Assembly: GCA_000004985.1 (NCBI GenBank)
Contig: GG738876.1
Reading direction: 5' to 3' (one strand)
Origin: Naegleria gruberi
Lineage: Eukaryota
Length of the DNA: 64,000 bases
A model generated the notes under the pieces. It worked only from the letters and a program-made list of their open reading frames with translations. It made no database searches and was not told the DNA's origin. This document shows positions 16,895 through 64,000 of the stretch, piece by piece. Every line of letters starts with the position of its first letter. The stretch's first letter is position 1. The translations under genes and the position numbers were made by a program.

Positions 16895-18819
16895 CTCTTT
16901 AATTCACTCCACAGAAAATGTGCAATTCCAAATTGTTCCAATTTTTTTTTTCACTTTTGAAAAATCTTATTGTAAAAAATTTTTAAGAATCCCAATAGTG
17001 CGCCCTTCTCCAACCCTTATCATCCTGTGATGGAAGTTGTAAATGGATGCAGTTGATATCTTTGAGATGATGGATCAGAAAGAATCTTTCAGAGATATGC
17101 ATATGAACAATAGACACATCTATGTCAATAAGTATAATTGGTGAGAGATGTGCGTTCGATACTTACTGCAGTATCGTTTACCAAATCTTGCAGATTCTTA
17201 TTCCACCACCACCAAGGGAATAATTTCAGTTAGCATGCTTTGCCTCTCGAACAGCTGTAGATTTTTTTCATTGAATAGTTTTTTTATTGAATTTATCCTA
17301 TTTCTTGGGATCACTTTACAATAATATATTATCGAAAGCAAGAAATAATAAAAAGAGAAGTGGTATATGATTCTTACATTTTGAAAACATCCTGCCAATC
17401 TTGCTCAGTTATTTCAATTTGTGTCTTTAAAACTGTCAAACGACATAATTATAAAATGGCTCATTTCCATTTATGTGAAAAGTTTAACAAAAGAAATACC
17501 TCAATGATTCGTAAGGAGATTCTTGATGATTCTTTTTGATATCTAAGATTTGGAATGATCGTTTATCCTGAAGTAACACCTTCAATCAAACTAAACTCCC
17601 AAGATTACAATTTTTTTCATTATTCACCATTGGTTGACCATTGAAATGATTCTCAATGGGCAGTGCAACAATATTATTGAAAGTTCTAGATGCAATTTTG
17701 TAACACATTCGTATTTACTTCTTTCCAACATCATTAGTGTTCCATACCGAATGTTATGTTCACATACCAAATGGAATTGTTGTACCTCCCAAATCATATT
17801 CAATAATCATTGTCATCTTTAACATGTTATTTACATATTGTATATTCTCTCATAAGAATCCATTAGTTTAGTTTATCCTTGGTTGACTTGTTGAGATTCT
17901 GTTTCAATAACTGTTCAGAACTTTAAAGATTTTCAGATAACACTTGCTAAATCATCAAAAGACTTCCTTGTTGTGTGAATTTTCTCACCAAACGTGTGAA
18001 AACTATCCATTAAAACCAAATTTCTTTTATTTAGACCATCACCTGCCAAAAATCAATAACAATCCCATTCAGAAACCACTAACCGTTTTATTATTGAATT
18101 TTGACATTTTTTCATAAATGTCTAGTTTTTATAAAAGTATCCTACCACTTTTTAGTATCACTTCAACCATTTTCATATCGACACTTGAAAGGTTTTCCTA
18201 CGGAAAAGTGATGGACTTGCAATTTATTCTAATACCGAACAGCGCTTTGATCAAAAACCTCAAGAGCAACCTCGATTAACCAAGACTTTCTCCTCTTGCT
18301 TTTTGATTATATTTTCACAACAGTTGGTCGATGCAGAGATTTTGAGCGTTTAAAATGATCTTGGTGTTGAAACTCTGAGGGAACTAACACTTTGAAAAAA
18401 ACAACTTGATACCCAACCATTCAACGGTTTTAATATTTTGTGCCGGCAATAACACACAACACTCAGAAGAAGAAGCGTTATCTTATATATTGAAACATTA
18501 ATCTGTTGATCATATTATCAATAGTGATTTTGTGTGCGCTTTTATATTTGATTCATTATCATCAACAAGAAGACTGTTGTTGAAATTTTGCTACCTCATT
18601 AATCATTCCTTTTCCCTCTCCCGTAAATATTTATCTTTAAACGTTTGTGTTCTCTCTCCTTTCAAGAAGAAGCAAAAACCAGAAGAATAATAACAACAAC
18701 AATACCTTTCCCTATCTCCCATCAACACGTGTAAACAGCCCTTTCAATATTTCAGCACATAATATTGCTAAATAGACCTCCCTGCTAACATTACTTCCAT
18801 AATATACTACTCGAAAACA

Positions 18820-20439
18820 ATGTCCTCATCAATTGCCCTGAATAATTCTAATACCTCTACCACTACTACTACCAATCCTCCTTTTGATATTTCCAAGCTT
18901 GTTACTCAAGCAGTTTTGTTACCTTCCTCCTCATCGTCATCCTTCCATAACAACCTCCCTAAATCATCATCATCATCCCCCTGTGCATTGGATAATAATA
19001 CCAATGAACAACAACAACAACAACCATTGAGTGATGATTCGATCATTCTCGAAGAAACAACCACCACCGACGTTGATAATACAGTAATTGCCACCATAAC
19101 GACAAAAGCTGCTCTAGGCAGTGGTGCTTTGATGGTTGAAGGAGTTGCCCTTGTCGACGATGAAGATGACGAAGAATCAACACCTGCCACACCAGAAGCT
19201 AATGGAGAATCCCAGCAAGAATCTTCTCAACAAGAACACCAAGAATCTGGCCTTTTAAAAGCCAAGAAGAAGAAGAATTCATTGACTAATAGTGCAGCAG
19301 CTCTTGAAGATTTGGAAACTATTTCAACCATGACAACTGTCAAGACTACAAGTACAACAAAGAAGGTTGTCAAGAGACATTCATCGCTCTCTGCTCAAAC
19401 TATGAACCAAGCAATGGATCAATCAATGAATCAATCAGCTCAACAAGAAGAACAATACACCACTCTTAAATCATCCACTCCAACAAAGAAGCAGAACAAG
19501 GAAAAGAAAGCAAGTCCTATCAATAATCTCTTCAAATCCATCAAGGGTGTCATTAAATCTTTAAAGAAGAATAAGAATAACAAGAGCACTTCTAGCTCAA
19601 CGACTTCACATAATAATAGCAAGCAAGATGGTGATTTAATCCATCAATTCTGTANNNNNNNNNNNNNNNNNNNNNNNNNNNNNNNNNNNNNNNNNNNNNN
19701 NNNNAACAAGGTGAAGCACTCACTGGTTTCTCAACAAGACGAAGAAGTCAAGACAAATAAGAAGAGAGCTCACAAGCAAGCTCCACAAACTGCTCTTCTC
19801 CCACCTCAACGACCACACGTTCAAGGCAAGAAGACTCTTGTACTTGACCTTGATGAAACATTGGTTCACTCTGTCTTTGTACATACTGACCAAGCTGACT
19901 TTGTGATTCCAATTGAAATGGATGGTAGAACATACTCTTGTTATGTTCTCAAGAGACCTGGAGTTGACGAATACTTGAGAGAACTCGGTCAATACTATGA
20001 AATTATCATCTTTACTGCTTCTCTCTCCCTGTATGCCAACCCACTTCTTGACATTCTTGATAAGCATGGTGTCATTGAAGGTAGATTATTCCGTGAACAT
20101 TGTACAAAGGTTGGTGATACTTACATTAAGGATCTCTCAAGATTGGGTCGTGATTTAGATCAAACCATTATTGTAGATAATTCTCCAAGTTGCTATGCAA
20201 TGCAACCACAAAATGCTTTGGCTTGTACCACATGGTACGATGATCCAAACGATAGAGAGCTGGGTCTTCTTGCTGATTGTCTCAAACGACTTGAAAGAGA
20301 AAAGGCTGTCTATGATGGTCTCAAGTCATGGAAGGAATTAATTTCATCAGGTGTTAATGTTACCTCATGGAATGGCGGATCAGCAATGACAGTATCCTCG
20401 ACGTCTCACCATCATCAAGTAATAAAGAAAAGAATGTAA
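18820..20439 (+). CDS. CTD small phosphatase-like protein (FCP1-homology/NIF domain), interrupted by N-gap 19656-19704
   Basis: C-terminal catalytic domain KKTLVLDLDETLVHS (DxDxT motif) ... IIIFTASLSLYANPLLDILD ... IIVDNSP. Long Ser/Thr/Gln-rich N-terminal region. The gap sits in the low-complexity linker. Confidence 0.8.
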   Translation: MSSSIALNNSNTSTTTTTNPPFDISKLVTQAVLLPSSSSSSFHNNLPKSSSSSPCALDNNTNEQQQQQPLSDDSIILEETTTTDVDNTVIATITTKAALGSGALMVEGVALVDDEDDEESTPATPEANGESQQESSQQEHQESGLLKAKKKKNSLTNSAAALEDLETISTMTTVKTTSTTKKVVKRHSSLSAQTMNQAMDQSMNQSAQQEEQYTTLKSSTPTKKQNKEKKASPINNLFKSIKGVIKSLKKNKNNKSTSSSTTSHNNSKQDGDLIHQFCXXXXXXXXXXXXXXXXXNKVKHSLVSQQDEEVKTNKKRAHKQAPQTALLPPQRPHVQGKKTLVLDLDETLVHSVFVHTDQADFVIPIEMDGRTYSCYVLKRPGVDEYLRELGQYYEIIIFTASLSLYANPLLDILDKHGVIEGRLFREHCTKVGDTYIKDLSRLGRDLDQTIIVDNSPSCYAMQPQNALACTTWYDDPNDRELGLLADCLKRLEREKAVYDGLKSWKELISSGVNVTSWNGGSAMTVSSTSHHHQVIKKRM

Positions 20440-20698
20440 ATAACAAATCATTTTCACAACTATTATTGTTGAACTGTTAGCTAAAAGTGTAAAATATTTG
20501 TCAGTTTTCTTTACAAAGTTCATGAGTACCGGCAAATACCTTCGCATGAGCGAATTGCTTATTGTAAACGTTACAATTTTGTAATCAAGATGTCAATCAC
20601 TGTAGTTTATCTCTAAATAACTGTAAATGCATTGTATAATCTGTCTCACAGTGAATTTGCTAGATATTGTCATTCTTTATTCAATCTTTCTGGAGAGT

Positions 20699-20780
20699 GA
20701 TAACCAGAGTTTTGAATAAGTGTTTAAACAGCTAAATTTGTCAGCATCTTCAAGTTGTGCAAGAAATTCAAAACTCTGGT
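20699..20780. repeat. Hairpin-forming inverted repeat (about 18-bp arms, about 46-nt loop) in 3' flank of the CTD-phosphatase gene
   Basis: ATAACCAGAGTTTTGAAT (20699-20716) pairs with ATTCAAAACTCTGGTTAC (20763-20780), 17/18 complementary. Confidence 0.5.
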
Positions 20781-20991
20781 TACGATAGGTTTGGTAATAA
20801 AGCAGTGATAAAGCTCCACAATTTTTGAATAATAAGTTACTGCAATTTTTTAGAACCACTTATCATTAATGATTAACTTTTTAAATACAAAATATGAAGA
20901 GGCCTTATATTATAAACTAGACATTAGGGGGAAGATATTTATCTATAAATATAAGGTGCTGTCATTAAGGAAAAAGAATAGGAAGAAAAAT

Positions 20992-21072
20992 TGCAGAAGG
21001 TGGGATTTGAACCCACGAAGCTTGCGCAGTAGAACTTGAGTCTACCCCCTTTGACCACTCGGGAACCCCTGC
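20992..21072 (-). tRNA. tRNA-Leu (anticodon CAA), intron-less, long variable arm
   Basis: Minus-strand GCAGGGGTTCCCGAGTGGTCAAAGGGGGTAGACTCAAGTTCTACTGCGCAAGCTTCGTGGGTTCAAATCCCACCTTCTGCA. 3-bp D stem, anticodon loop CT-CAA-GT, 12-nt variable arm, T-arm GTGGG-TTCAAAT-CCCAC. Confidence 0.8.
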
Positions 21073-21219
21073 TTCACATTCATGATGAAAATTATCCTGA
21101 TTTGACATTACCCAAGACACTAAGGCACTAGGTTTGAAATGGTTGCCTTAATTTTCCAGTTCCTTGTATTAGTAGTTATTTTTATATTATTAGAGTTTTT
21201 ATTTACAATTTATTCATTG

Positions 21220-22521
21220 TTATTGATTGAATGCCTCAGAGAATGCTGCCCAATTAGGACTTTCTTCCAAGTCGAAAACAGCAAAAATAACTTGTTTGAG
21301 GCATGAGTTTTCATACTTTTTCAAACATTTTCTCCACAATTTGGCTTCTCTGAATGGATCATGTAAGAATGCTCCACATCCACTGGCACCTGTTACAAGT
21401 GTGTGAATATTCTGATCGGCACACGTCTTGAGAACTCCCTCAATATCTAGAATGAGTCGTTGTTCCAATTCCTTTTCATTTGTAATATTTCCATAACCAT
21501 ACCAGGAGTAAAAGTAATTTCTCTCCGAGTATGGAGTAAAGAAGGGAACAAATGGTCTGAAATCTGCAAATGCAGCAGCAATCATGTAGCAATCGACTGG
21601 CTCACTACCAGTCACGAATTTTGTCTTGGTAAAGTAATTGCCACCTGGAGGCAAATGAAGACCCTTCTTGTAAGAAACCCACCTTCCTCTCACAAAGCTC
21701 TTCATTCCAGTATCAATTAATTTTCCAACAGTTCCCAATAGAGCAGCACCATCACAATTGGTTGCAACTTCTTCCTCTTGAGATCCTCCATAATCAACAC
21801 AATATGTTCCACATACATTGTGTGCATTAGCAAAATTGACCCAGGCAACTTTCTTACTAGAATCATTTAATTCCTTTGAAACCAGCTCAACAACTTCTTG
21901 TGTTCCCATTCTCAGTGACCTGGTTTTTAGTAGGTTTGAATCTAAAAGCTCATCAATTAAAAGAGGAGCTTCAGGTTTCAATTCAGGACAAAACCAATCA
22001 TATAAAGTGAGAGAGCTCAAATGGTCAATTAATTGAGAACGTTTCTCCTCTACCTGTTCTTCACTCAAGTTCATAGTACCGTCCCAAGCTACATCTACTC
22101 TCGATCCAATAGCATATACTCTTCCTCTCAATAATCTTTTATCTGCATGACTTTTCGAATAGCTCAACTTTCGAACATTCTCTCTCGACATTCTATTCGT
22201 CACTCTCAAGCAAAAGTTTTGGAATTCCTCTCCATGTAAATCAAAACTTCTCGATCCAATTCTATGAAATGCTTCTCTGTACTTTTTGAGAATTTCCTCA
22301 ACAGATAATGAAGATTCACAAGGTTGAATATCATTTAACCAATTTAAACAAGTTTGATCTTCCACCAATTTTAAATATAATTTTTCATTAATTATTGTTT
22401 TGATCTTGTTGTTTTCCTGATCCGATTCTTGTTGATGAATTATTGTTTTAAATTGTTTCAAACCGGAAGGAAATTCAGCTGGATAATCATTACGAAGTTT
22501 TGGCAATGTCGAGTTGATCAT
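21220..22521 (-). CDS. Bacterial-type poly(ADP-ribose) glycohydrolase-like macrodomain protein (DUF2263-like)
   Basis: VAWVNFANAHNVCG...GGSQEEE matches the PARG signature (NFASA..GGG..QEE). The later LVTGASGCGAFLHDP matches the second conserved block (GAWGCGVFGNDP). 433 aa. Confidence 0.55.
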   Translation of the reverse strand: MINSTLPKLRNDYPAEFPSGLKQFKTIIHQQESDQENNKIKTIINEKLYLKLVEDQTCLNWLNDIQPCESSLSVEEILKKYREAFHRIGSRSFDLHGEEFQNFCLRVTNRMSRENVRKLSYSKSHADKRLLRGRVYAIGSRVDVAWDGTMNLSEEQVEEKRSQLIDHLSSLTLYDWFCPELKPEAPLLIDELLDSNLLKTRSLRMGTQEVVELVSKELNDSSKKVAWVNFANAHNVCGTYCVDYGGSQEEEVATNCDGAALLGTVGKLIDTGMKSFVRGRWVSYKKGLHLPPGGNYFTKTKFVTGSEPVDCYMIAAAFADFRPFVPFFTPYSERNYFYSWYGYGNITNEKELEQRLILDIEGVLKTCADQNIHTLVTGASGCGAFLHDPFREAKLWRKCLKKYENSCLKQVIFAVFDLEESPNWAAFSEAFNQ

Positions 22522-26345: not shown

Positions 26346-28774
26346 ATGAAAAGAGAAACTTTTAAGGTTCATGCAATACAACAAGGAAGAAGGAATAATG
26401 ATTCAACTCCTTCTTCTTCCTACTCGGAAGGATTTTTAAAGATGAAGAAGAATGTAAATAATAGCTTGATGATGCTGGTTGCATTAATATCAATCATGCT
26501 GCTGTTGGGTTTCTCTCAATATGTTGAAGCATTGAATGGTGAGGGAGTTGATGTATCCAAGTGCACTTATCAGAGTTCTGTCTCATTGGGCTCTACCATG
26601 ACTTTAAAGTGGAATGTTTTGAAGAATCCTAGTGATGCCTCCAATTATATTCTCGAATTTGGTTTAATTTGCACAAAGGCAGGTTATTGTTCCATTGGAT
26701 TTGATCATCCGTATGGGCAGGGCATGCAAAGTATTGATACCTTGTTTGCTTTTGTGAGTTCTGGAGTTGCCAATGTTCAGGATTGTTACTGCACCAATAA
26801 GCATTCAATTCCAACCATCGATTCGAACAATGGAGGTTCTAATGACTTTTTGGAAACTAATGGTGGAGTTGTGAATGGACAGTATCATTATAGATGGAGT
26901 AGAAAGATGAGTACTGGAGATTCACAGGATGCAACCTTTAAGAATTCAAATGTTTATGTGAGTTGGGCCTATCATTCATCCTCTACCTCAATTTCTTCAA
27001 CTCACACCGACTATGGAAGAAATATTGCAGTTAATTTCCTTTCCAATACACCAACTGAAACCTATGTGAAAGGAATGATTAATAATGGAGCTAGTAGTTC
27101 ATCCTCTTCTTCCTCAAATTCAACAAGTACTAGTAGCTCCACTTACACACAAGTTCCATCTCTATGCCCTTGCCATTGGTATTGCTTCACTAATCATGGC
27201 TGGATTAATTGTGACTTATTTGCCAACTGCTTTCAAATCCAACATTATTACTCACTTTTTATTTTATAGAAAGATTTCCAAGGTTATTCCATATGATTTT
27301 CCATTAGTTTCTTATGTGAATCAATTCCTTGATTTGACAATTGGTGAAGTATTGGTGATTATTGTCTATTTGGCTATGAAGGTTGTTTGGTTTGTTTATG
27401 GATTTCTTACTCAAACTGATGATTCTACAGCAAAGAAGGTAGCCTCTGGATTTACTCAATTAATTGTGTTTAACTATATTTTCCTGTTCATTCCAGTGAC
27501 AAGATATTCAGTTTTACAAGCATTATTTGGAATTTCATTCGAAAGATCAATCAAATTCCATAAATGGATTGGTGTCATGGTTTTCCTCTCTGCAACTGCT
27601 CATGGTATAGTGGAATTTATTGCGTACAGGGACAATATTCCATATATATTCTCGGTTGGTGATGGTTTTCCATTACTGGGAATTATTGCTTGGTTGACTC
27701 TTGGATTGCTTCTTTTATTCTCACTTGAGCCAATCAGAAGAAAATTATATGAATTGTTTTTGGTATTCCACATTCCATTGACCTTTATCACAGTCACATT
27801 CTCAATTATTCATGGTGAAGGTTGGATTAATTTACTTCCATATATGGCATTCTCACTCTTTTTAATGGTAGTGGATTTTCTTTTGAGAGCAATAATTGGA
27901 TTTGGCGTTCCAACCAAGTTGGTTCAGATTTCATATGATGAAGATGCTGAGGTTACAACTTGTGTATTCGAAAAGAGATTCTTGACCCTGTTCCACAATC
28001 CAAATCATGCTCACTTTGTCTTTGTTTACATTCCACAAGTTTCCATTTATCAACTCCATCCAATGACAATTAGTTCATGTGTTAAGTTGCATGATGGTAG
28101 TCATCAATTTACATGCCACATCAAACGAATGGAAGGAGGTTCTTGGTTAACCAAATTGGCCAACCTAGCCAAGTCAAAGAATGATTGATGAATATTTTGG
28201 CGTTAGAGTTGAAGGAGCATATGGAAATCTTTCCATTCCATTCTTCAATTCAGGACTATTCTCAAAAATAGAAGATCCAAAGCGTACCATTGTCTTTATC
28301 GTTGCTGGAATTGGAGCCACTCCTGCCAATGCTATCCTTACAGCTCTGGAAGATCCAAAATATAATGAACCAACTCCTTACAAGGTCTTTGTTAACTTTA
28401 CAATGAGAAATGAAGCTCTCCTTCCTCACTTGACCAAAATTATTCAACAAAAACCCAATGTTGAAAGTTCCTTCTATATTACTGGTTCCAAATCAAAATC
28501 TCACAATGCCAATCAGATTGAAATGCTAGAGAAGGGAAGAAGTACTGGAATAGATCATAGTAATGATAGAAGATTTATCAAGGGATCAAGACCAGTCTAT
28601 GAAGAGTATCTTCATAAGGTGAAACAATATGTTGCCCAATCTAAATCAAAGCCATACGTTTCAGTGTTTGCCTGTGGTCCAGCAGCCATGATGAATGCAG
28701 TTCATAATGCTGTAATTTCAGCTAGTGATATGGATTGTCGATTTGAACTTCATAAGGAAGAATTTGAATTTTAA
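26346..28774 (+). CDS. DOMON domain fused to a ferric-reductase/NADPH-oxidase-type flavocytochrome (paralog A); coding spread over 3 frames by two apparent +1 frameshifts near 27100-27170 and 28160-28185
   Basis: Signal peptide, then Cys-containing DOMON-like domain (CTYQSSVSLGSTMTLKWNV...GYCSIGFDHPYGQGMQS...DCYCTN). TM ferric-reductase domain with His ligands (HKWIGVMVFLSATAHGIVEF, FHIPLTFITVTFSIIHGEG). FAD motif HPMTISS. NAD(P)H motifs IVFIVAGIGATP and VFACGPAAMMNAV. The frameshift positions were inferred by comparison with in-frame paralog B. Confidence 0.65.
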
Positions 28775-29065: not shown

Positions 29066-31497
29066 ATGTGGATATTAAGGCAGCAGCAGAATCATCCAAT
29101 AAAACATTTAGAGAGTGTTAACTACTCTCTTTCATCAAATAGAACACAAAAATGTTCGGAAAGAGGATTATTAAAATTAACTGTCATGTGTTTGATAATA
29201 TTCATGATAAATATCACTCATATACAACATGTTGAGGCATTGAACAGTGCAGGAAATGATGTGTCCAAATGTACCTATCAAAAATCAGTAAAACTTGGCT
29301 CTACCATGACTCTCTACTGGAATGTTTTGAAAAATCCCAATGATGCCTCCAATCCCATTCTTGAATTTGGTTTAATTTGCACAAAAGCAGGTTACTGTTC
29401 CATTGGATTTGACCATCCATTTGGAAAAGGTATGCAAAGTATTGATACCTTGTTTGCTTATACTTCCAATGGAGCTGCATATGTTCAGGATTGTTATTGC
29501 ACCAATAAGAAATCCATTCCAACCATCGACTCGAACAATGGAGGTTCTAATGACTTTTGGAAACTAATGGTGGAGTTGTGAATGGACAGTATCATTATAG
29601 GTGGAGTAGAAAGATGAGCACTGGAGATTCACAGGATGCAACCTTTAAGAATTCAAATGTTTATGTGAGTTGGGCCTATCATTCATCCTCGACTTCAATT
29701 AGGTCAACTCACACGGCCTATGATAGAAATATTGCCATCAACTTTCTTTCTGTCTCGCCAACTGAAACCTACTCAACTGGTATGATTAATTCTGGAACTA
29801 GTAACAATAATAATGGAGGTGGTAATAATAATGGTGGCAATGATGACAATGAAGGAGACAATGATGATGACCATGACAGTGGAGATTCAAAGAAGCACTT
29901 GTATCATTTGTATGCTTTGGGAATTGCTGTATTTTCCTTAATGGTATTAGGAATTATTACCACTATCTTACCAGCTTCTGTCAAATCTAATATCTTTACT
30001 CACTTTTTGCTGTACAGAAAGGTTTCGAAAGTTATTCCATATGATTTTCCATTAGTTTCCTATGTGAATCAATTCCTTGATCTGACTCTTGGTGAGTTGG
30101 TTATCATTTTAGTATATGCTGGATTGAATGTTATTTGGTTTGTTTATGGATATTTGGAAAGTCAAAAGGTTTCGTCTGCATTTGCAAAGGTGATTGTATT
30201 TAACTATATTTTCCTGTTCATTCCAGTGACAAGATATTCAGTTTTACAAGCATTATTTGGAATTTCATTCGAAAGATCAATCAAATTCCATAAATGGATT
30301 GGTGTCATGGTTTTCCTCTCTGCAACTGCTCATGGTATAGTGGAATTCATCGAATTTAAAGATAACATTCCATTCATGTTTTCAGTGGAGGATGGATATC
30401 CATTGTTGGGAATTATTGCATGGCTAGCTCTTGGATTATTATTGCTATTTTCAATGGAGCCAATCAGAAGAAAATTATATGAATTGTTTTTGGTTTTCCA
30501 TATTCCATTGACATTTATCACAGTCACATTCTCAATTATTCATGGTGAAGGTTGGATTAATTTACTTCCATACATGGCATTCTCTATTATTTTAATGGTA
30601 ATTGACTGGACTTTAAGAGCAATTATTGGATTTGGTCTTCATACACAACTAGTCCATATATCCTATGATGAAGAGTCTGAAGTGACCACTTGTGTATTCG
30701 AAAAGAGATTCTTGACCCTGTTCCACAATCCAAATCATGCTCATTTTGTTTTTGTTTACATTCCACAAGTTTCCATTTATCAACTCCATCCAATGACAAT
30801 TAGCTCATGTGAAAAACTTGCAGATAGTAACCATTACCGATTCACATGCCACATCAAAAGAATGGAAGGAGGTTCTTGGTCAACCAAATTGGCCAATCTT
30901 GCAAAATCCAACAAACCAATCGATTCATATCATGGTGTTAGAGTTGAAGGAGCTTACGGAAATCTTTCCATTCCATTCTTCAATGACAGTCTCCTCTCCA
31001 GAAGTGAAGATAAAAAGAGAACCATTGTCTTTATCGTTGCTGGAATTGGAGCCACTCCTGCCAATGCTATCCTTACAGCTCTGGAAGATCCAAAATATAA
31101 TGAACCAACTCCTTACAAAGTCTATGTGAATTTAACTTCAAGAAATGAAGCAATTCTCAAGCACTTTAGAATACTGGTCCAACACAAACCAAATGTAGAT
31201 TGCACATTCTACATAACAGGAACTAAACCATCCAAATCTATAGAAATGTTAGAAAAAGGGCAAAGTACTGGAATTGACCATAGTACAGATAGAAGGTTTA
31301 TCAGAGGATCAAGACCAAATTATGTTGATTACTTGAATGGTGTGAAAGCACAAGTCAATCAATCAAAATCGCTCCCTTACGTTTCAGTGTTTGCCTGTGG
31401 TCCTTCTTCAATGATGAATTCTGTTCATAATGCTGTGTGGTCATGTAGTGATATGGATTGTCGTTTCGAATTACATAAAGAAGAATTTGAATTTTAA
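29066..31497 (+). CDS. DOMON-ferric reductase/NOX-type flavocytochrome (paralog B); one apparent -1 frameshift at a T-homopolymer near 29553-29560
   Basis: Same architecture and long 100% identical stretches with paralog A (e.g. 27461-27600 = 30211-30350). The homopolymer is T4 here versus T5 in paralog A at GACTTTT(T)GGAAACTAATGG. It has a poly-N/G/D acidic linker instead of paralog A's poly-S linker. Confidence 0.65.
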
Positions 31498-53799: not shown

Positions 53800-54010
53800 A
53801 AGCTGAAGTAAAGGCCACTGTATTTGATTTGTCAAGTTGGGGCGCACAATCAGGATCATCTGCAAGTATTCCTCTTCTTCTCTTCTTGTTGATGAAACAC
53901 CTCTCTTCATTGGAGGAGGCTGCTTTGTTATTAAGCACTGGTGAGTAGCCCTAAATACGCAAAACATCAAGAACAACAACATGTATAATTTTTTGGAATT
54001 TGGAGTAGAA
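53800..54010. repeat. Subtelomeric dispersed repeat copy A (partner copy at 58290-58580)
   Basis: Shared blocks by eye: TGTATTTG(ATTT)GTCAAGTTGG; CAGGATCATC; TCCTCTTC.TCTCTTCTTGTT; TGCTTT.TTATTAAGCACTG; CGCA.AACATCAAGAACAACAAC; TATAATTT.TTGGAATTT. Confidence 0.55.
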
Positions 54011-54415: not shown

Positions 54416-56329
54416 ATGAAAACACTTGCTAACAAGGTTATTTCATCATCAATTATTACCGCTTCTCGAGGATCCTCTCTCAAGAATGGTTCTATTCTTG
54501 TTGGTGGTACTTTTAATACATTACCATTGATCAATATTGGAAAACATCATCCATCATTTTCAATAATTGAAATTGCTAGAAGAAATTATCATGCAACAAG
54601 TAGTAAAATGTTCTTTGATTTGAAAAAGGCCAAACAAGAAGCAGAGACTGTAGTTTATTCCGAACAAGAACAGAATGAATTGATCAAAAATTATCAACTA
54701 CTTGAGGACAAATTTCAGAGATTAACTGAGAATATTATTGAATATCGTAGAAATCATCCTACTCCTGTTCAATTAGAAACGAACCACTTATTTGTTCAAG
54801 TTTGTGATATTGTAAATTTTTGTTACAAAACCTTTCCGACAGGTAGTGCTCCAGTTAACATGCAAGTTAGATTCTTCAAATCAAATGTTGGAATGAAGTC
54901 ATATGTCTTGATGAAGAAGGTTGAGTTGTTAATGTTAAAGATTGTAAATCAAGAATGGTTCCCAGTTGAAACAATCAGAACTCAATTCCATGAGGAAAAT
55001 ATCATGGAATCCATTTCTGATGTTGTTCATCCTCCTGATACACCTATTGACGATACACTCTTCTTGTATGCTTCTTATAATACAGCCCTTTCTTATGCAG
55101 CTTTCATTCCAAAACTAAACATTAGAGATATGGTGAGACCAATCACAAAGGAAAATCTAATTGCTGCAACATTATTCTTGTTTAATCGATTGAAGGATTT
55201 TCCAGATTGGACCGATGAGTTTAGAGCTTATGTCGAGTGTGTCTTTTCAGATTATGAATCAGCCAAATTGGCTTATACTACTGCAAATCCAATTGAAAAT
55301 GAACCAGCTTTCCATTATAATGCTGATGATAATGCTTATTCTTACTTGGGAAAGACATTCACAGAGCACGAGTTTGATTGGTTCGAAGATATTGAAACAA
55401 ATATTCCAATTCATCTTGGAAATTTTATCAAAGCTGTGTCGGCTGCTGCTTATTTTGATGGAGATAGAAAGCAAAGTATTGATATTTTGGATGAATGTAT
55501 CAAAACTGATCCAAAGAATATTTATATTCACTATTTGAAGGCATCTTGTTTAAACAATCTCACTAGTTCAGAGTCAGACCTTAATATTGTTCGCAATAAT
55601 TACTCAGATGCTATTCATCATTTGGAGAAGGCATTGGCCTATCTTGAAAATATTCCAAAGTTGCCACTTCCTACTCTTGCAAAGACTAATTTTTCACACG
55701 AAATTGAAGAACCAGAAAAACAGGTTGAAAGAATTAACGATCTCAAATTCACACCAATTTGTTTATTATTGGCCAACGTGTATGCAAGAGCTGCTGAATC
55801 TGGAGTTTCAATAGATTTGCGACACATTTACGGTGCAAAGGGGGTCGATTATGTCAGACAAGTTGAATTATATTCAAGATCACCTAATGAGCCTTATTTG
55901 TATATGAGTAAGGGAGGTTGCTATTATGCTTGTGGTATGTATGAATTGGCAGTCAATGCCTATTCTTCTGTTGAAAGATTTGAAGCAGTTTTGGATCCAA
56001 ACGCCATCATTGACTCTCTTTGTTATGCTTCGAATGGAATGGTTGCTCTTGGGTATTCTGATAAGTGTTTGGAAGCAATGGAATTTTATATTGAAAAATA
56101 TAATAATGATGCGAGATTAGTTTTTCAAAAGATTCTCTGTAAAGAGTACATGTGTAGATCAAAGGATGAATTGAGACAGGTTTTGAAAGAATTCGAACAA
56201 TTAAAGGAGAGCATTCAAGATTTGAAACTCACTCCATGGATTTATTCAAGGGTTAACGAGCAAACCGATGCAAGAATTAACGATATTTTTGCAGCTATCA
56301 ACAATCCACAAATTGCTGAACGTTGGTAA
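54416..56329 (+). CDS. Hypothetical protein with TPR-like helical repeats; N-terminus resembles an organellar presequence
   Basis: 637-aa ORF. N-terminus MKTLANKVISSSIITASRGSSLKNGS is basic/hydroxylated and free of acidic residues. C-terminal helical-repeat-like segments (GGCYYACGMYELAVNAYSSVERFEAVLDPN). Last gene before the subtelomeric non-coding zone. Confidence 0.45.
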   Translation: MKTLANKVISSSIITASRGSSLKNGSILVGGTFNTLPLINIGKHHPSFSIIEIARRNYHATSSKMFFDLKKAKQEAETVVYSEQEQNELIKNYQLLEDKFQRLTENIIEYRRNHPTPVQLETNHLFVQVCDIVNFCYKTFPTGSAPVNMQVRFFKSNVGMKSYVLMKKVELLMLKIVNQEWFPVETIRTQFHEENIMESISDVVHPPDTPIDDTLFLYASYNTALSYAAFIPKLNIRDMVRPITKENLIAATLFLFNRLKDFPDWTDEFRAYVECVFSDYESAKLAYTTANPIENEPAFHYNADDNAYSYLGKTFTEHEFDWFEDIETNIPIHLGNFIKAVSAAAYFDGDRKQSIDILDECIKTDPKNIYIHYLKASCLNNLTSSESDLNIVRNNYSDAIHHLEKALAYLENIPKLPLPTLAKTNFSHEIEEPEKQVERINDLKFTPICLLLANVYARAAESGVSIDLRHIYGAKGVDYVRQVELYSRSPNEPYLYMSKGGCYYACGMYELAVNAYSSVERFEAVLDPNAIIDSLCYASNGMVALGYSDKCLEAMEFYIEKYNNDARLVFQKILCKEYMCRSKDELRQVLKEFEQLKESIQDLKLTPWIYSRVNEQTDARINDIFAAINNPQIAERW

Positions 56330-56640
56330 TAACTAAGCACATGGTCTAAGTTTGAAAAGGTGTTAAATAAACATCTTTTAACTTACCATTGTGATATATA
56401 ATAGTCTGATCTACATGTGTTGCAAACAGGAAGGTGTACCTTCCTATATTTATTGAGATAATCAATAAAGTTTGGAATGTGTCAGAAAAACTTGCCCTCT
56501 CGCCATTTTGCCATATTTGAGATCTGGACTTTTATAGTCTGGAAATAGGGTAGACGTGTTCCATATTCAATAATCTATATGAAAAAAAGAAGAAATAAAA
56601 TTAACTCTTGAATTGAGTATATAACGACTATTGATATTAC

Positions 56641-56658
56641 TATATATATATATATGGT
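56641..56658. repeat. (TA)n microsatellite
   Basis: CTATATATATATATATGG, direct reading. Confidence 0.8.
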
Positions 56659-58289
56659 ATTTGGATAATAAATTCCACAGAAATCACTCTTGAAATATAA
56701 AATGCACTAGAGTATGTGAGAAACATAATGGTGGTGAAACTGACCAATAACTCGCTGAAATGACTGATATGGAATGTAAACTATGGTCTATTATTCATGT
56801 AAGTGTGACTAGACAGTGTCAATTCCACTATAGTATTTCATACTGGATTGAAATCATCAAATATACTTCTATACATCACATATATCATGTAGAACTAGTT
56901 TCAATATTTAATATTGTGAGATGACTCTGTTGGATACCATCTCTATAAATATAACAAGATGAAAAGTGTCAATATATGTTTTCACATACATGTTACTATG
57001 AAGAGTCATCATTATATCATCTAAATAGGTAGTATTTATATATAACAATTGAACATATGATTCCTGTATCAATAATTCATTATTCAATGATTTAGATATG
57101 ATGGTAAAATTTAATTTTGGAATTAAGATTCTTCCCTATTGATTACCTTAGATGTTTCCTTAGTTGACTTGAAGTTTTTGAGCCATCAATATGAAACTTT
57201 CACAGATTGTTCTCCTCACCAAGAGGAGTGTATTCATATTGATACTTGTATGATATTTTGTAAAATGAATGAGATGGAGTATATTTTATATGTTGAAATG
57301 TGACAATTTGACAGATTGTTATTATTATCATACTGAATTCAACTCTAATAGACTTAAATTGATACCATATGTAGGTTGGGTTTGGTTAACCTGGCGCCGG
57401 ACGATTTTGTCCAAAAATCCTGCCTTTCGACCTAAAATTTTTTAGCTATGCCTTCTACACATCTATTTCTATCTACCATATTAATATCTAGTCTTGTCTT
57501 TAAGTAGTTTTCGAGAAAATAGCCTCTGATTAGAGGTCATTTTTCAATAAAATTTTCCCGCGGAAATTTCCCCGCTTTTAGTATTGGGTTTGGTTATCGT
57601 TTCGTACTATTGGATCTTCATTATTACTGAAATACATAATCAATGATATACATCATTAAATAGGTTACAATCTCAGCTATCCAGTGGGCTATAGATTGTG
57701 TATAGTTTCTTATATAATTATTGAGATAATCAGCAATTCCTCACTCAATATATTGCGATTTTACTATTCCTAGGGAAAGGTAAAAGAATGATCAGAAATT
57801 GATCAATAAAAAATATATGTCATACTAGAGATGATTTGCTATCGATTGGTGTTTCAACTTTTGGATTTCACTAAGTAATTATTGAATTATCACCGAGGGT
57901 TTGGGTTGGTGGGGTTTGGGTGAGTTTTATACACTTTCATACAATAGAGTGATATTGAAATGTACCCTTTGATATTTCTGGATGGGTAGCATGATTTAGT
58001 GATGATTCCGACAATAAAAATCATATATTGTTCATATAATTATCAAGATATTGTATAATTTATTAAATATAAAGTGGGTAATATTGAATATTCTTTGTAG
58101 GAGCGGAAGCACTTATTCTTGTCAGTTGGAGTCAGTATTGTATTAAGGTTCATTTAAGGAATCTTAAAAAAATACAATAACAACTCACCTGCATCAACAT
58201 CATCAAGTATATCATCTATATTGAATATAAAGCAACAGCAAGAATGTATGGAGTTGATTCAACATGATTATTGGATTGGAGAGATGGCA

Positions 58290-58580
58290 AAAATATTACT
58301 ATTATTGTATTTGTCAAGTTGGAAGTACCCTCAGGATCATCAGCGAGGTTTCCTCTTCATCTCTTCTTGTTAGAGAGGTTTTTCATCCACAAGATGGTCA
58401 TCTTCTTCAATTGAAGAGGTTGCTTTATTATTAAGCACTGAGAGAAGCGTTTTTAAATTTTATTTTGATGAAATAAATCAAAATTTATTACGCACAACAC
58501 ATCAAGAACAACAACAGCAACATGCTGATACACCATCATCATCACTGGGTGAATTGGCCATCATTGTTGTATAATTTCTT
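58290..58580. repeat. Subtelomeric dispersed repeat copy B (partner of 53800-54010), followed by His-rich partial ORF running into scaffold gap
   Basis: See copy A. The downstream ORF 58522-58753 (MLIHHHHHWVNWPSLLYNF...) is truncated by the N-run. Confidence 0.5.
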
Positions 58581-58753: not shown

Positions 58754-61700
58754 NNNNNNNNNNNNNNNNNNNNNNNNNNNNNNNNNNNNNNNNNNNNNNN
58801 NNNNNNNNNNNNNNNNNNNNNNNNNNNNNNNNNNNNNNNNNNNNNNNNNNNNNNNNNNNNNNNNNNNNNNNNNNNNNNNNNNNNNNNNNNNNNNNNNNNN
58901 NNNNNNNNNNNNNNNNNNNNNNNNNNNNNNNNNNNNNNNNNNNNNNNNNNNNNNNNNNNNNNNNNNNNNNNNNNNNNNNNNNNNNNNNNNNNNNNNNNNN
59001 NNNNNNNNNNNNNNNNNNNNNNNNNNNNNNNNNNNNNNNNNNNNNNNNNNNNNNNNNNNNNNNNNNNNNNNNNNNNNNNNNNNNNNNNNNNNNNNNNNNN
59101 NNNNNNNNNNNNNNNNNNNNNNNNNNNNNNNNNNNNNNNNNNNNNNNNNNNNNNNNNNNNNNNNNNNNNNNNNNNNNNNNNNNNNNNNNNNNNNNNNNNN
59201 NNNNNNNNNNNNNNNNNNNNNNNNNNNNNNNNNNNNNNNNNNNNNNNNNNNNNNNNNNNNNNNNNNNNNNNNNNNNNNNNNNNNNNNNNNNNNNNNNNNN
59301 NNNNNNNNNNNNNNNNNNNNNNNNNNNNNNNNNNNNNNNNNNNNNNNNNNNNNNNNNNNNNNNNNNNNNNNNNNNNNNNNNNNNNNNNNNNNNNNNNNNN
59401 NNNNNNNNNNNNNNNNNNNNNNNNNNNNNNNNNNNNNNNNNNNNNNNNNNNNNNNNNNNNNNNNNNNNNNNNNNNNNNNNNNNNNNNNNNNNNNNNNNNN
59501 NNNNNNNNNNNNNNNNNNNNNNNNNNNNNNNNNNNNNNNNNNNNNNNNNNNNNNNNNNNNNNNNNNNNNNNNNNNNNNNNNNNNNNNNNNNNNNNNNNNN
59601 NNNNNNNNNNNNNNNNNNNNNNNNNNNNNNNNNNNNNNNNNNNNNNNNNNNNNNNNNNNNNNNNNNNNNNNNNNNNNNNNNNNNNNNNNNNNNNNNNNNN
59701 NNNNNNNNNNNNNNNNNNNNNNNNNNNNNNNNNNNNNNNNNNNNNNNNNNNNNNNNNNNNNNNNNNNNNNNNNNNNNNNNNNNNNNNNNNNNNNNNNNNN
59801 NNNNNNNNNNNNNNNNNNNNNNNNNNNNNNNNNNNNNNNNNNNNNNNNNNNNNNNNNNNNNNNNNNNNNNNNNNNNNNNNNNNNNNNNNNNNNNNNNNNN
59901 NNNNNNNNNNNNNNNNNNNNNNNNNNNNNNNNNNNNNNNNNNNNNNNNNNNNNNNNNNNNNNNNNNNNNNNNNNNNNNNNNNNNNNNNNNNNNNNNNNNN
60001 NNNNNNNNNNNNNNNNNNNNNNNNNNNNNNNNNNNNNNNNNNNNNNNNNNNNNNNNNNNNNNNNNNNNNNNNNNNNNNNNNNNNNNNNNNNNNNNNNNNN
60101 NNNNNNNNNNNNNNNNNNNNNNNNNNNNNNNNNNNNNNNNNNNNNNNNNNNNNNNNNNNNNNNNNNNNNNNNNNNNNNNNNNNNNNNNNNNNNNNNNNNN
60201 NNNNNNNNNNNNNNNNNNNNNNNNNNNNNNNNNNNNNNNNNNNNNNNNNNNNNNNNNNNNNNNNNNNNNNNNNNNNNNNNNNNNNNNNNNNNNNNNNNNN
60301 NNNNNNNNNNNNNNNNNNNNNNNNNNNNNNNNNNNNNNNNNNNNNNNNNNNNNNNNNNNNNNNNNNNNNNNNNNNNNNNNNNNNNNNNNNNNNNNNNNNN
60401 NNNNNNNNNNNNNNNNNNNNNNNNNNNNNNNNNNNNNNNNNNNNNNNNNNNNNNNNNNNNNNNNNNNNNNNNNNNNNNNNNNNNNNNNNNNNNNNNNNNN
60501 NNNNNNNNNNNNNNNNNNNNNNNNNNNNNNNNNNNNNNNNNNNNNNNNNNNNNNNNNNNNNNNNNNNNNNNNNNNNNNNNNNNNNNNNNNNNNNNNNNNN
60601 NNNNNNNNNNNNNNNNNNNNNNNNNNNNNNNNNNNNNNNNNNNNNNNNNNNNNNNNNNNNNNNNNNNNNNNNNNNNNNNNNNNNNNNNNNNNNNNNNNNN
60701 NNNNNNNNNNNNNNNNNNNNNNNNNNNNNNNNNNNNNNNNNNNNNNNNNNNNNNNNNNNNNNNNNNNNNNNNNNNNNNNNNNNNNNNNNNNNNNNNNNNN
60801 NNNNNNNNNNNNNNNNNNNNNNNNNNNNNNNNNNNNNNNNNNNNNNNNNNNNNNNNNNNNNNNNNNNNNNNNNNNNNNNNNNNNNNNNNNNNNNNNNNNN
60901 NNNNNNNNNNNNNNNNNNNNNNNNNNNNNNNNNNNNNNNNNNNNNNNNNNNNNNNNNNNNNNNNNNNNNNNNNNNNNNNNNNNNNNNNNNNNNNNNNNNN
61001 NNNNNNNNNNNNNNNNNNNNNNNNNNNNNNNNNNNNNNNNNNNNNNNNNNNNNNNNNNNNNNNNNNNNNNNNNNNNNNNNNNNNNNNNNNNNNNNNNNNN
61101 NNNNNNNNNNNNNNNNNNNNNNNNNNNNNNNNNNNNNNNNNNNNNNNNNNNNNNNNNNNNNNNNNNNNNNNNNNNNNNNNNNNNNNNNNNNNNNNNNNNN
61201 NNNNNNNNNNNNNNNNNNNNNNNNNNNNNNNNNNNNNNNNNNNNNNNNNNNNNNNNNNNNNNNNNNNNNNNNNNNNNNNNNNNNNNNNNNNNNNNNNNNN
61301 NNNNNNNNNNNNNNNNNNNNNNNNNNNNNNNNNNNNNNNNNNNNNNNNNNNNNNNNNNNNNNNNNNNNNNNNNNNNNNNNNNNNNNNNNNNNNNNNNNNN
61401 NNNNNNNNNNNNNNNNNNNNNNNNNNNNNNNNNNNNNNNNNNNNNNNNNNNNNNNNNNNNNNNNNNNNNNNNNNNNNNNNNNNNNNNNNNNNNNNNNNNN
61501 NNNNNNNNNNNNNNNNNNNNNNNNNNNNNNNNNNNNNNNNNNNNNNNNNNNNNNNNNNNNNNNNNNNNNNNNNNNNNNNNNNNNNNNNNNNNNNNNNNNN
61601 NNNNNNNNNNNNNNNNNNNNNNNNNNNNNNNNNNNNNNNNNNNNNNNNNNNNNNNNNNNNNNNNNNNNNNNNNNNNNNNNNNNNNNNNNNNNNNNNNNNN

Positions 61701-62899
61701 NNNNNNNNNNNNNNNNNNNNNNNNNNNNNNNNNNNNNNNNNNNNNNNNNNNNNNNNNNNNNNNNNNNNNNNNNNNNNNNNNNNNNNNNNNNNNNNNNNNN
61801 NNNNNNNNNNNNNNNNNNNNNNNNNNNNNNNNNNNNNNNNNNNNNNNNNNNNNNNNNNNNNNNNNNNNNNNNNNNNNNNNNNNNNNNNNNNNNNNNNNNN
61901 NNNNNNNNNNNNNNNNNNNNNNNNNNNNNNNNNNNNNNNNNNNNNNNNNNNNNNNNNNNNNNNNNNNNNNNNNNNNNNNNNNNNNNNNNNNNNNNNNNNN
62001 NNNNNNNNNNNNNNNNNNNNNNNNNNNNNNNNNNNNNNNNNNNNNNNNNNNNNNNNNNNNNNNNNNNNNNNNNNNNNNNNNNNNNNNNNNNNNNNNNNNN
62101 NNNNNNNNNNNNNNNNNNNNNNNNNNNNNNNNNNNNNNNNNNNNNNNNNNNNNNNNNNNNNNNNNNNNNNNNNNNNNNNNNNNNNNNNNNNNNNNNNNNN
62201 NNNNNNNNNNNNNNNNNNNNNNNNNNNNNNNNNNNNNNNNNNNNNNNNNNNNNNNNNNNNNNNNNNNNNNNNNNNNNNNNNNNNNNNNNNNNNNNNNNNN
62301 NNNNNNNNNNNNNNNNNNNNNNNNNNNNNNNNNNNNNNNNNNNNNNNNNNNNNNNNNNNNNNNNNNNNNNNNNNNNNNNNNNNNNNNNNNNNNNNNNNNN
62401 NNNNNNNNNNNNNNNNNNNNNNNNNNNNNNNNNNNNNNNNNNNNNNNNNNNNNNNNNNNNNNNNNNNNNNNNNNNNNNNNNNNNNNNNNNNNNNNNNNNN
62501 NNNNNNNNNNNNNNNNNNNNNNNNNNNNNNNNNNNNNNNNNNNNNNNNNNNNNNNNNNNNNNNNNNNNNNNNNNNNNNNNNNNNNNNNNNNNNNNNNNNN
62601 NNNNNNNNNNNNNNNNNNNNNNNNNNNNNNNNNNNNNNNNNNNNNNNNNNNNNNNNNNNNNNNNNNNNNNNNNNNNNNNNNNNNNNNNNNNNNNNNNNNN
62701 NNNNNNNNNNNNNNNNNNNNNNNNNNNNNNNNNNNNNNNNNNNNNNNNNNNNNNNNNNNNNNNNNNNNNNNNNNNNNNNNNNNNNNNNNNNNNNNNNNNN
62801 NNNNNNNNNNNNNNNNNNNNNNNNNNNNNNNNNNNNNNNNNNNNNNNNNNNNNNNNNNNNNNNNNNNNNNNNNNNNNNNNNNNNNNNNNNNNNNNNNNN
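58754..62899. other. Scaffold gap (4146 N) between subtelomere and terminal telomere-associated sequence
   Basis: Uninterrupted run of N. The giant six-frame ORFs spanning it are artefacts. Confidence 0.99.
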
Positions 62900-63600
62900 G
62901 AATTGATATGAAATTCAATACCAATTATTGAAATACCATGATTAATTGATCTATATATGATGCTATAATTGAAAGATTTTAAAATTAATATCATTTCATT
63001 ATCTTGATATTCATTATTCCCATGATTACACTCCTGACATGTTGAATGATATCAAATTGTCATGAAACTGATACAGTAGTGTTTATTCACCATTAGTAAG
63101 GTACTGTATCAATTTCATAATGATCTGTATAGTAGATGTCATTGTCTCATCCCTGTAGGTATCAAGTGGATCAGCCATGTACCATGAATGATATGGATGA
63201 TCTTCAAAATCATATAGATATATTTAATTATCATGTATAGATGTATTGGAAGTGAATTGAAGTGGTATAGATTTCTATCTTCAATGTTAGTATAGGTCAG
63301 TTGACAAGTTGAATAGTTAATTTCCTTAGATGATTCCACAGTACCTGAAATTGATACATGTTGTTACCAACATGATTTATAAGGTGATATATTGATTTGA
63401 ATTGATTTTGAAATGTTTTCATTGATATTCTAATTGTCTAATCTATTATATGAAATTAACTTATATAAGTCATTATAATGATGTAATATTATGTTATAAT
63501 ATGATTATATATTCAATTTGGAGTATATTGATATATAATATATTGATTTATAATGAGTATTTATTGAGATAATCAATTAAGATGACTAAAAATCAAAATG

Positions 63601-64000
63601 TTGGGTTTGGGTTTGGGGTTGGGTTTGGGTTTGGGTTTGGGTTTGGGTTTGGGTTTGGGTTTGGGTTTGGGTTTGGGTTTGGGTTTGGGTTTGGGTTTGG
63701 GTTTGGGTTTGGGTTTGGGTTTGGGTTTGGGTTTGGGTTTGGGTTTGGGTTTGGGTTTGGGTTTGGGTTTGGGTTTGGGTTTGGGTTTGGGTTTGGGTTT
63801 GGGTTTGGGTTTGGGTTTGGGTTTGGGTTTGGGTTTGGGTTTGGGTTTGGGTTTGGGTTTGGGTTTGGGTTTGGGTTTGGGTTTGGGTTTGGGTTTGGGT
63901 TTGGGTTTGGGTTTGGGTTTGGGTTGGGTTTGGGTTTGGGTTTGGGTTTGGGTTTGGGTTTGGGTTTGGGTTTGGGTTTGGGTTTGGGTTTGGGTTTGGC
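63601..64000 (+). repeat. Telomere repeat array (TTTGGG)n with occasional TTGGG/TTTGGGG variants, about 65 units, G-rich strand 5'->3' toward the window end (right chromosome terminus)
   Basis: Direct reading. The array begins after the unique junction ...GAGATAATCAATTAAGATGACTAAAAATCAAAATG and runs to the last base of the window. Confidence 0.9.

Follow-up and report, generated by a model that had tools for sequence, protein, structure and literature searches.

A recurring short motif and a probable fossil chromosome end in a subtelomere of Naegleria gruberi

Short tracts of telomere repeat occur inside subtelomeres, as shown by the TG1-3 tracts at the X-Y' and Y'-Y' junctions of yeast and by the degenerate TTAGGG tracts between human duplicons, and a fossil end within a subtelomere is a known kind of structure. 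Between its last gene and its telomere a chromosome may carry distinctive non-coding sequence, such as TARE/Rep20 in Plasmodium, Y' in yeast and the subtelomeric repeats of trypanosomes. Short elements have also been described near telomeres. Ciliates have cis-elements for telomere addition, the 15-bp Cbs of Tetrahymena and the E-Cbs of Euplotes with its TTGAA core, and subtelomeres contain the SPE2 sites bound by PfSIP2 in Plasmodium and the Tbf1/Reb1 sites of yeast. We know of no programmed chromosome fragmentation in Naegleria. The literature that we searched contains no paper describing Naegleria subtelomeres, and in it the telomeres of N. gruberi are known only from TTTGGG, a candidate repeat read off scaffold ends (PMC3622300). 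The region described below gives a first anatomy of a Naegleria subtelomere, made up of a gene-free zone with biased word usage, one probable fossil junction and a candidate junction motif.

The stretch of DNA analysed here, referred to as the window, covers 64,000 nucleotides at the end of a N. gruberi scaffold and ends in some 400 bp of TTTGGG, with variant units (TTTGGGG and TTGGG) at the base of the array, which starts at about position 63600 (Table 1). A 4.1-kb gap separates this true end from the putative relic T2, and the terminal contig has been positioned by scaffolding alone. The last 7 kb of the arm are an ordinary gene-free subtelomere. We lean towards reading everything distal to the last gene, up to the TTTGGG telomere, as the subtelomere of one N. 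gruberi arm, and we think it somewhat probable, judging from the sequence, that this motif-bearing subtelomere encloses one fossil chromosome end.

Table 1. Coordinates of the features of the chromosome end, as positions in the window.
Feature	Position	Strand	Remarks
ORF-free subtelomeric zone	56330..58150	+	~70% AT, C-poor, directly after the stop of the last gene (56329)
Motif copy c1, TATTTATTGAGATAATCAATAAAG	56447..56470	+	23/24 versus c3, first 20 nt exact
Weak telomere-like tract T1, GGTTGGGTTTGGTTA	57374..57388	+	last 13 nt are the left copy of the direct repeat
Insert, 195 bp, of foreign composition	57389..57583		C 22.6%, GC skew -0.24
T1', right copy of the 13-nt direct repeat TTGGGTTTGGTTA	57584..57596	+	other copy at 57376
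Motif copy c2, TATAATTATTGAGATAATCA	57713..57732	+	19/20 versus c1
Degenerate motif copy c5, TAATTATTGA-ATTATCA	57876..57892	+	2 edits from core
Telomere-like tract T2, GGGTTTGGGTTGGTGGGGTTTGGGTGAG	57897..57924	+	~4.5 degenerate telomere units, four G-runs, G-strand orientation
Non-coding fragment paralogous to 53816-53981	58297..58516	+	E = 8e-15
Scaffold gap	58754..62899		4146 N
Telomere-adjacent AT-rich sequence	62900..63557	+	extremely rich in ATTGAT/TGATAT words
Motif copy c3, TATTTATTGAGATAATCAATTAAG	63558..63581	+	18-nt spacer before the telomere
Terminal telomere array	63600..64000	+	~67 TTTGGG units, 98% matches

The candidate fossil is similar to the interstitial telomeric sequences of other organisms, in that the species' own repeat forms a short and decayed tract, set in from the end by a few kb, oriented like the terminal array and placed in a gene-poor setting with signs of duplication and exchange. 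It differs from them in that the tract is 28 nt long and seen at one end, and in that its conserved neighbour is a motif of 15-24 nt rather than a kilobase-scale element. The blocks flanking T2 are not demonstrable as duplicons, because the motif copies lack flanking homology. As with TARE/Rep20, Y' and the trypanosome repeats, distinctive non-coding sequence is found between the last gene and the telomere, but the Naegleria end has no alignable units and presents instead a short-word bias and one 15-bp tandem repeat (2.1 copies, 63524-63554) inside the telomere-adjacent sequence. The motif recalls the Cbs and E-Cbs of ciliates, since it is conserved over about 15 nt, lies between a few and about 20 nt from the start of the telomere repeat and occurs at more than one junction. 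However, its distance varies (4 versus 18 nt at the two junctions seen), some internal copies have no tract, and a role in telomere addition is only putative. It is comparable to the SPE2/PfSIP2 and Tbf1/Reb1 sites as a specific short motif limited to non-coding subtelomere and consistent in orientation, whereas its four copies form no regular array and its binding by a protein is only putative.

An earlier note on this DNA, made from the letters only, had described an ORF-free zone enriched in TGATAT/ATTGAT words like those near the telomere, and both descriptions hold. No ORF in 56330-58150 is longer than 59 aa, this being the longest ORF-free stretch of the window, and from there to the gap all three minus-strand frames are broken and plus-strand ORFs reach at most 76 aa. 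ATTGAT and TGATAT together have a density of 10.4/kb in the zone and 27/kb in 62900-63600, compared with 3.5/kb elsewhere. With the motif masked, the zone shares more same-strand 8-/9-mers with 62900-63600 than does each of the 420 other windows compared, and an excess of G over C is common to the zone and the telomere-adjacent sequence. The assignment of the zone to telomere-associated sequence that belongs, by composition, to one type with the telomere-adjacent DNA is supported.

All the strings quoted in that note are present, displaced by 0-10 nt. The 24-mer next to the telomere and its internal match, reported at 63552-63575 and 56444-56467, correspond to c3 and c1 (found at 63558-63581 and 56447-56470, matching at 23/24 positions), and the third occurrence, reported at 57719-57734, is ATTATTGAGATAATCA at 57717-57732, a part of c2. 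The 15-mer TTATTGAGATAATCA has three exact copies in the window (56450, 57718 and 63561), all on the plus strand and within the last 7.6 kb, and the remaining 56 kb contain no exact copy and one copy with a single mismatch. A 20-mer common to c1 and c3 (56447 and 63558) is the sole exact 20-mer repeat of the window outside one tandem gene duplication. The degenerate copy c5 was found with an explicit edit-distance scan of the window, and its left flank, AAGTA, is also c3-like. All copies lie on one strand and point endward in 3.1 kb of assembled terminal sequence, with mutually unrelated spacings of 1270, 159 and 5682 nt between successive copies. In c3 the core of the motif is dyad-symmetric (ATTGA-GATAA-TCAAT), and c2 departs from the dyad with a right arm reading TCAGC. 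The term junction motif is used on the strength of a single telomere, because one chromosome end was examined.

Copy c1 lies 118 nt past the stop codon of the last gene, with the perfect hairpin GGAAGGTGTACCTTCC before it and the word TTTGG after it (56471-56475). We considered c1 as a general poly(A)/terminator signal and rejected this, because the motif is absent from every other gene in the window. A search for the extended motif in metagenomes returned more than 120 chance matches on unrelated contigs, none of them with TTTGGG arrays or similarity to the window, and a scan of prokaryote genomes for the motif together with the telomere gave zero matches. Everything retrieved by a scan for (TTTGGG)6 was a hexamer repeat of bacteria, and where such an array stood at a contig end, the contig had 40-64% GC and an unrelated junction.

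Telomere-like tracts of 12 nt with at most one mismatch to (TTTGGG)n number four in the window against 1.2 expected. Three of them cluster in 57374-57924, all on the G-strand and pointing the same way as the terminal array. Among these tracts T2 alone is individually significant, and T1 is marginal. Reported earlier at 57897-57926, T2 proves to be a 28-nt G/T tract ending at 57924; over 25-28 nt it consists of G and T only, its 12-mers being within one mismatch of (TTTGGG)n. T2 aligns with the true telomere in its innermost stretch, where the array is irregular, and none of 500 shuffles scored as high. It is probably an interstitial telomere relic. Copy c5 ends 4 nt upstream of T2, as c3 ends 18 nt upstream of the true telomere, and with no tract at all after c2 the spacing from motif to tract is inconsistent. 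The resemblance of c5 and T2 to the true junction is confined to about 20 nt, the outer flanks being unrelated. The window holds five matches to the motif with at most two edits, c5 included, against 3.3 expected, and c5 alone is at chance level. The association of the motif with a decayed telomere seed, as it had been proposed, is thus borne out internally by the pair c5-T2, of which c5 had escaped the earlier note, but c2 at 57717 is not the partner.

The two other tracts noticed earlier are T1 (reported at 57364-57380; the string GGTTGGGTTTGGTT stands at 57374-57387) and T1' (TTGGGTTTGGTT at 57584-57595). Both are present, but they amount to one 13-mer, TTGGGTTTGGTTA, duplicated around a 195-bp insert, and because both are this 13-mer the tracts at 57376 and 57584 are not independent. 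The GC skew is +0.08 to +0.22 around the insert versus the negative value within it, and nearly all CpGs of the zone 56.3-58.7 kb gather at or around its two ends. The 13-nt repeat looks like a target-site duplication around the insert. We sought a second copy of the insert within the window and found none. Folding of the insert on both strands was no better than that of shuffles (z = 0.03 and -0.8), neither strand has an A-rich or simple-repeat tail, and terminal inverted repeats are also absent. The two insert ends gave zero exact matches to viral contigs, and Rfam and tRNA searches with the insert and the surrounding zone were empty.

Directly observed are the features of the sequence, the way they point, their confinement to the end and the missing block homology; from these we infer both the order of historical events and any function of the motif. 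The pair c5 and T2 would be the remnant of an earlier chromosome end. Later, new distal sequence carrying the same terminal motif would have been placed beyond it, perhaps by recombination with or break-induced copying from another end, or by end joining, and the trapped telomere tract T2 would subsequently have decayed. The tracts at 57376 and 57584 would represent one site, duplicated when a foreign fragment of 195 bp was inserted. For copies c1 and c2 and for the weak tract at 57374, a past as chromosome ends cannot be demonstrated. Copy c1 is followed by a mere TTTGG, which counts against the fossil-end reading, as does the tractless c2.

The earlier note had explained the zone as a tandem series of telomere-associated blocks that each finish with the motif plus a decayed telomere seed and that arose by serial healing or by amplification. 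A telomere-type word does indeed follow within 18 nt of three of the four motif copies (TTTGG at c1, T2 at c5 and the telomere at c3), and the zone and the telomere-adjacent sequence have word usage in common. However, no homology past the 15-24-nt motif was found by blastn (word sizes 7 and 11), by nhmmer or by shuffle-tested gapped local alignments of the flanks, so that block homology is nil at any sensitivity, and Tandem Repeats Finder detected no tandem periodicity linking blocks of the zone. The spacings between motif copies are likewise unrelated, and two of the three proposed seeds are the duplicated 13-mer around the insert. Since no alignment extends past the motif copies, these are not reiterated blocks, and a model already largely contradicted in this way appears to us very improbable. 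That note had named two observations that would speak against it: the matches are in fact isolated and lack flanking similarity, but the motif is not equally frequent in non-terminal sequence. Another reading is coincidence, by which low-complexity, AT-rich DNA of biased composition, full of ATTGA and GATA, would yield repeated words and runs of G and T that have no history in common. An isolated pair of 15-16-mers is indeed unremarkable, with about 7 expected from base composition and roughly 10 seen in the window; motif matches at up to two or three edits are at chance level overall, T1 by itself is not significant, and the similarity of the flanks is no higher than that of shuffles. Yet TTATTGAGATAATCA is expected at about 0.0005 copies per strand, shuffles never matched the observed count, and base-composition estimates give about 0.002 for an exact 15-mer in three copies and about 0.01 for an exact 20-mer pair. 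A pure G/T tract of 25 nt matching the telomere has an estimated expectation of about 0.01, and a match with at most two edits would fall by chance into the 40 nt before T2 with a probability of about 0.001, for a pairing that was spotted post hoc. As the copies are moreover on the same strand and all in the 3.1 kb of assembled terminal sequence, we judge coincidence to be improbable.

Telomere-targeting mobile elements, such as HeT-A/TART of Drosophila, Athena of rotifers and the telomeric retroposons of Giardia, might have left successive copies at this end, split by short telomere tracts, with the motif as the terminus of the element. The insert lies inside a telomere-like tract and has a 13-nt duplication typical of target-primed insertion, and short telomere tracts pointing one way suit such arrays. 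On the other hand, the assembled part is without a reverse-transcriptase or other ORF, and the insert is single-copy in the window, without poly(A) or terminal inverted repeats. Moreover, the motif is on the telomere-proximal side of the tracts, which in such arrays is formed by the variably truncated 5' ends of the elements, and these would not be conserved. Even with the predominance of LINEs, the main transposon class in the sister species N. fowleri (PMC6831594), in its favour, this origin seems to us quite improbable. Perhaps the motif is a functional cis-element of chromosome ends that is kept intact by selection as the DNA around it drifts, either as a site for a dimeric telomere or subtelomere protein or as a promoter-like element for telomere-ward transcripts, with the tracts being incidental. 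The exact conservation of 15-24 nt amid unalignable DNA, the dyad symmetry of the core, the single orientation of copies confined to the end and the enrichment of the surrounding DNA in words that resemble the half-site, ATTGA(T), and mostly point the same way would all be consistent with such a role. But the right arm of the dyad is disrupted in c2, with four copies selection cannot be told from recent short-patch copying, and the motif has been seen at one end only; we regard this explanation as unlikely. It is compatible with reading c5 and T2 as a fossil end.

A further reading of the motif, to which we give little credence, is that TTATTGAGATAATCA(AT) would be a dedicated Naegleria end element found beside every TTTGGG telomere, where it may either attract a factor that binds the end or promote the addition of telomere repeats and healing a few nucleotides downstream. 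If this were true, c1 with TTTGG and c5 with T2 would each record a separate healing event. If the motif is common to all ends, it would provide a handle on end protection and healing in Heterolobosea, far from the model systems; if it is not general, what is described here is a typical eukaryotic subtelomere plus an interstitial telomere remnant.

The distal part of the arm was also compared with other loci. The last gene codes for a protein with the same sequence as N. gruberi XP_002675751. Another scaffold, which carries NAEGRDRAFT_74410, encodes a product that matches residues 339-637 of this protein at 299/299 positions but differs upstream, and this suggests that the distal block may be common to another locus. 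This match and the duplicated non-coding fragment at 58297-58516 speak for a dynamic end. The identical protein on that scaffold could also stem from an unmerged haplotype and not from another chromosome end. The sequence at 53816-53981, to which the non-coding fragment before the gap is paralogous, is intergenic and lies upstream of the last gene. A tandem duplication of 4.5 kb, including this upstream fragment, the gene and c1, with c1 and c3 homologous, was considered and rejected, as the distances misfit (2.6 kb versus 5.3 kb) and the 660 bp preceding c3 are dissimilar to the 3' half of the gene. The N. fowleri homologue (35% identity) has an internal position, 137 kb from the start of a contig of 988 kb.

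By its sequence, the window is the terminal 64 kb of a scaffold of N. gruberi NEG-M. Its ~34% GC sequence is densely packed with long, intron-poor ORFs in the standard genetic code, and the last of these (54416-56326) is identical to N. gruberi XP_002675751 (NAEGRDRAFT_80226; 396,977-bp contig). A perfect GC-rich hairpin, GGAAGGTGTACCTTCC (56430-56445; 6-bp stem, 4-nt loop), lies ~100 nt past the stop codon of this gene and may be a 3'-end signal. The window ends in an array of ~67 units of TTTGGG with 98% matches (Tandem Repeats Finder), the repeat proposed from scaffold ends as the candidate telomere repeat of N. gruberi (PMC3622300). The innermost units (63601-63630) are irregular (TTTGGGG, TTGGG), and a further TTGGG variant is found near 63921. 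The terminal 1.1-kb contig is set off from the remainder by a gap of 4,146 N. The N. fowleri homologue of the last gene (35% identity) is in the interior of its contig, so conservation of this end does not extend across the genus. Our literature search found no paper on Naegleria subtelomeres.

The earlier note had described a motif adjoining the telomere that recurs almost exactly further inward and a third time as a shorter copy. Both recurrences were confirmed, and the 24-mer is present at the end, although with a spacer before the repeats; all quoted strings exist, with coordinates off by 0-10 nt.

Features of the chromosome end (coordinates in the window)
Feature	Position	Strand	Remarks
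Motif-core hit, 1 mismatch	ends at 4980		≤2 edits
Motif, near-copy of 24-mer (c1)	56447-56470	+	23/24 match, first 20 nt exact; TTTGG follows; hairpin abuts upstream side
Telomere-like tract	57374-57387	+	G-strand orientation
195-bp segment	57389-57583		whole structure 57376-57596
Telomere-like tract	57584-57595	+	G-strand orientation
Motif, 16-mer copy (c2)	57717-57732	+	
Motif, degenerate copy (c5)	57876-57892	+	≤2 edits
Telomere-like tract (T2)	57897-57924	+	28 nt; G-strand orientation
Gap	58754-62899		
15-bp tandem repeat TATATTGATTTATAA	63524-63554		2.1 copies, directly before terminal motif
Motif, 24-mer next to telomere (c3)	63558-63581	+	18-nt spacer, then repeats
Terminal array	63600-64000		

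The 15-mer TTATTGAGATAATCA has three exact copies in the window, all on the + strand and within the last 7.6 kb, against an expectation of ~0.0005 per strand; in the other 56 kb the closest match is a single copy with 1 mismatch. If one tandem gene duplication is set aside, the window repeats no 20-mer exactly other than the one shared by c1 and c3. Because ~7 exact 15-mer pairs are expected from base composition in such a window (roughly 10 were listed), it is the triple occurrence and the 20-mer, not single 15-16-mer matches, that show non-randomness. At this one telomere and within these 64 kb, a short candidate junction motif is confined to the terminal region. The window also contains a tandem pair of paralogous genes (26517-28774 and 29225-31497; ~81-85% nucleotide identity, period ~2.7 kb).

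Scanning the window for the motif core by edit distance gave five hits at up to 2 edits. Besides c5, these are the three exact copies and the one with 1 mismatch, and the number of hits is not significant by itself (3.3 ± 1.9 expected). However, c5, which reads TAATTATTGA-ATTATCA, ends 4 nt upstream of the telomere-like tract T2 on the same strand, a placement with a post hoc chance of ~0.001, and its left flank resembles that of the terminal copy (AAGTAATTATTGA versus GAGTATTTATTGA). The best alignment of T2 is to the true telomere, at its irregular innermost repeats, and none of 500 shuffles scored as high. A motif followed by a short spacer and telomere repeats is therefore present at two places, the true end and a site 5.7 kb further in (gap included). 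The TTTGG 6 nt after c1 could be a more eroded instance, not distinguishable with confidence from chance, and nothing like a telomere-type word follows c2.

Tracts of 12 nt with at most 1 mismatch to (TTTGGG)n were observed four times versus 1.2 expected, three of them within 57374-57921 and oriented as the G-strand of the real telomere. The three telomere-like tracts that had been reported thus exist, but they are not three independent events, because those at 57376 and 57584 are one and the same 13-mer, TTGGGTTTGGTTA; T2 is the only individually improbable one. The two TTGGGTTTGGTTA copies flank a 195-bp segment with 22.6% C and a GC skew of -0.24 versus +0.08 to +0.22 in the surroundings, and nearly all CpGs of the ORF-free zone cluster at or around both of its ends. 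Neither a second copy of this segment in the window nor an Rfam match nor a significant fold was found. The most parsimonious explanation is that it inserted into a single weak telomere-like site and duplicated 13 nt of the target, which reduces the three proposed telomere seeds to two sites; the insert may be a truncated retroposon, although it has no 3' tail.

The zone following the last gene is indeed ORF-free: ORFs in 56330-58150 reach 59 aa at most, and between 58100 and the gap stops interrupt each of the three minus-strand frames, and no plus-strand ORF is longer than 76 aa. Together with the terminal contig it forms the longest ORF-free stretch of the window; others are 16904-18908 (2.0 kb) and 20086-21222 (1.1 kb), the latter containing a tRNA-Leu (20992-21072). 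The texture that the zone was said to have in common with the telomere-adjacent sequence was also borne out. ATTGAT plus TGATAT reach 27/kb in 62900-63600 and 10.4/kb in 56330-58150, compared with 3.5/kb elsewhere and 0-11/kb in other ORF-free stretches. With motif copies masked, the zone and 62900-63600 have 124 same-strand 8-mers and 50 same-strand 9-mers in common, more than any of 420 non-terminal windows, some of them equally AT-rich (61 ± 14, maximum 108, and 18.6 ± 7, maximum 39). Both are C-poor, with G>C.

The earlier note had explained these features by tandemly reiterated telomere-associated blocks, each ending in the motif and a decayed telomere seed. This model is contradicted in its main test, since blastn (word sizes 7 and 11), nhmmer and Tandem Repeats Finder found no repeat homology past the motif copies, and gapped local alignments of their flanks against shuffles found no similarity outside the motif. 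The only extended similarity within the window end is between 58297-58516, just before the gap, and 53816-53981 (nhmmer E = 8e-15; 82-93% in patches); the former is a diverged non-coding duplicate of the latter, the intergenic stretch preceding the last gene. The motif matches are thus isolated, which had been named as evidence against the blocks, but the similar motif frequency in non-terminal sequence, named alongside it, was not found. What survives of the proposed relic chromosome ends is one site, whose motif copy the earlier note lacked.

Coincidence in compositionally biased DNA is disfavoured by the triple exact 15-mer, the unique 20-mer and the c5-T2 statistics. An array of telomere-targeting retroelements would place the motif on the other side of the tracts, and the assembled part presented no ORFs or element homology. 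The motif may be a functional binding or promoter-like element, which would fit the dyad symmetry of its core (ATTGA-GATAA-TCAAT) and the exactness with which it is conserved amid unalignable DNA, and this is compatible with a fossil end. Overall, the region is best read as a typical subtelomere preserving one probable fossil chromosome end, at 57876-57924. Terminal blocks copied between chromosome ends would have trapped a telomere tract, as happens in yeast and human subtelomeres, and a second locus would fit here. NAEGRDRAFT_74410, on a different, 236-kb N. gruberi scaffold, is identical (299/299) to residues 339-637 of the last-gene protein (window 55430-56329), and the two differ upstream of residue 339. 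The distal block, from ~55.4 kb outward, thus seems to be present near-identically at another locus, which would be a second chromosome end or, alternatively, an unmerged haplotype. Any role of the motif is inferred, as is the succession of events. The structure is a further instance of a well-known kind, of modest interest unless the motif proves general.

Exact (TTTGGG)6 arrays also proved unexpectedly frequent in bacterial and archaeal assemblies, on more than 120 contigs (L122-L241), some at contig ends and one (L216) adjoined by arrays of other 7-nt units; these are unrelated to Naegleria.
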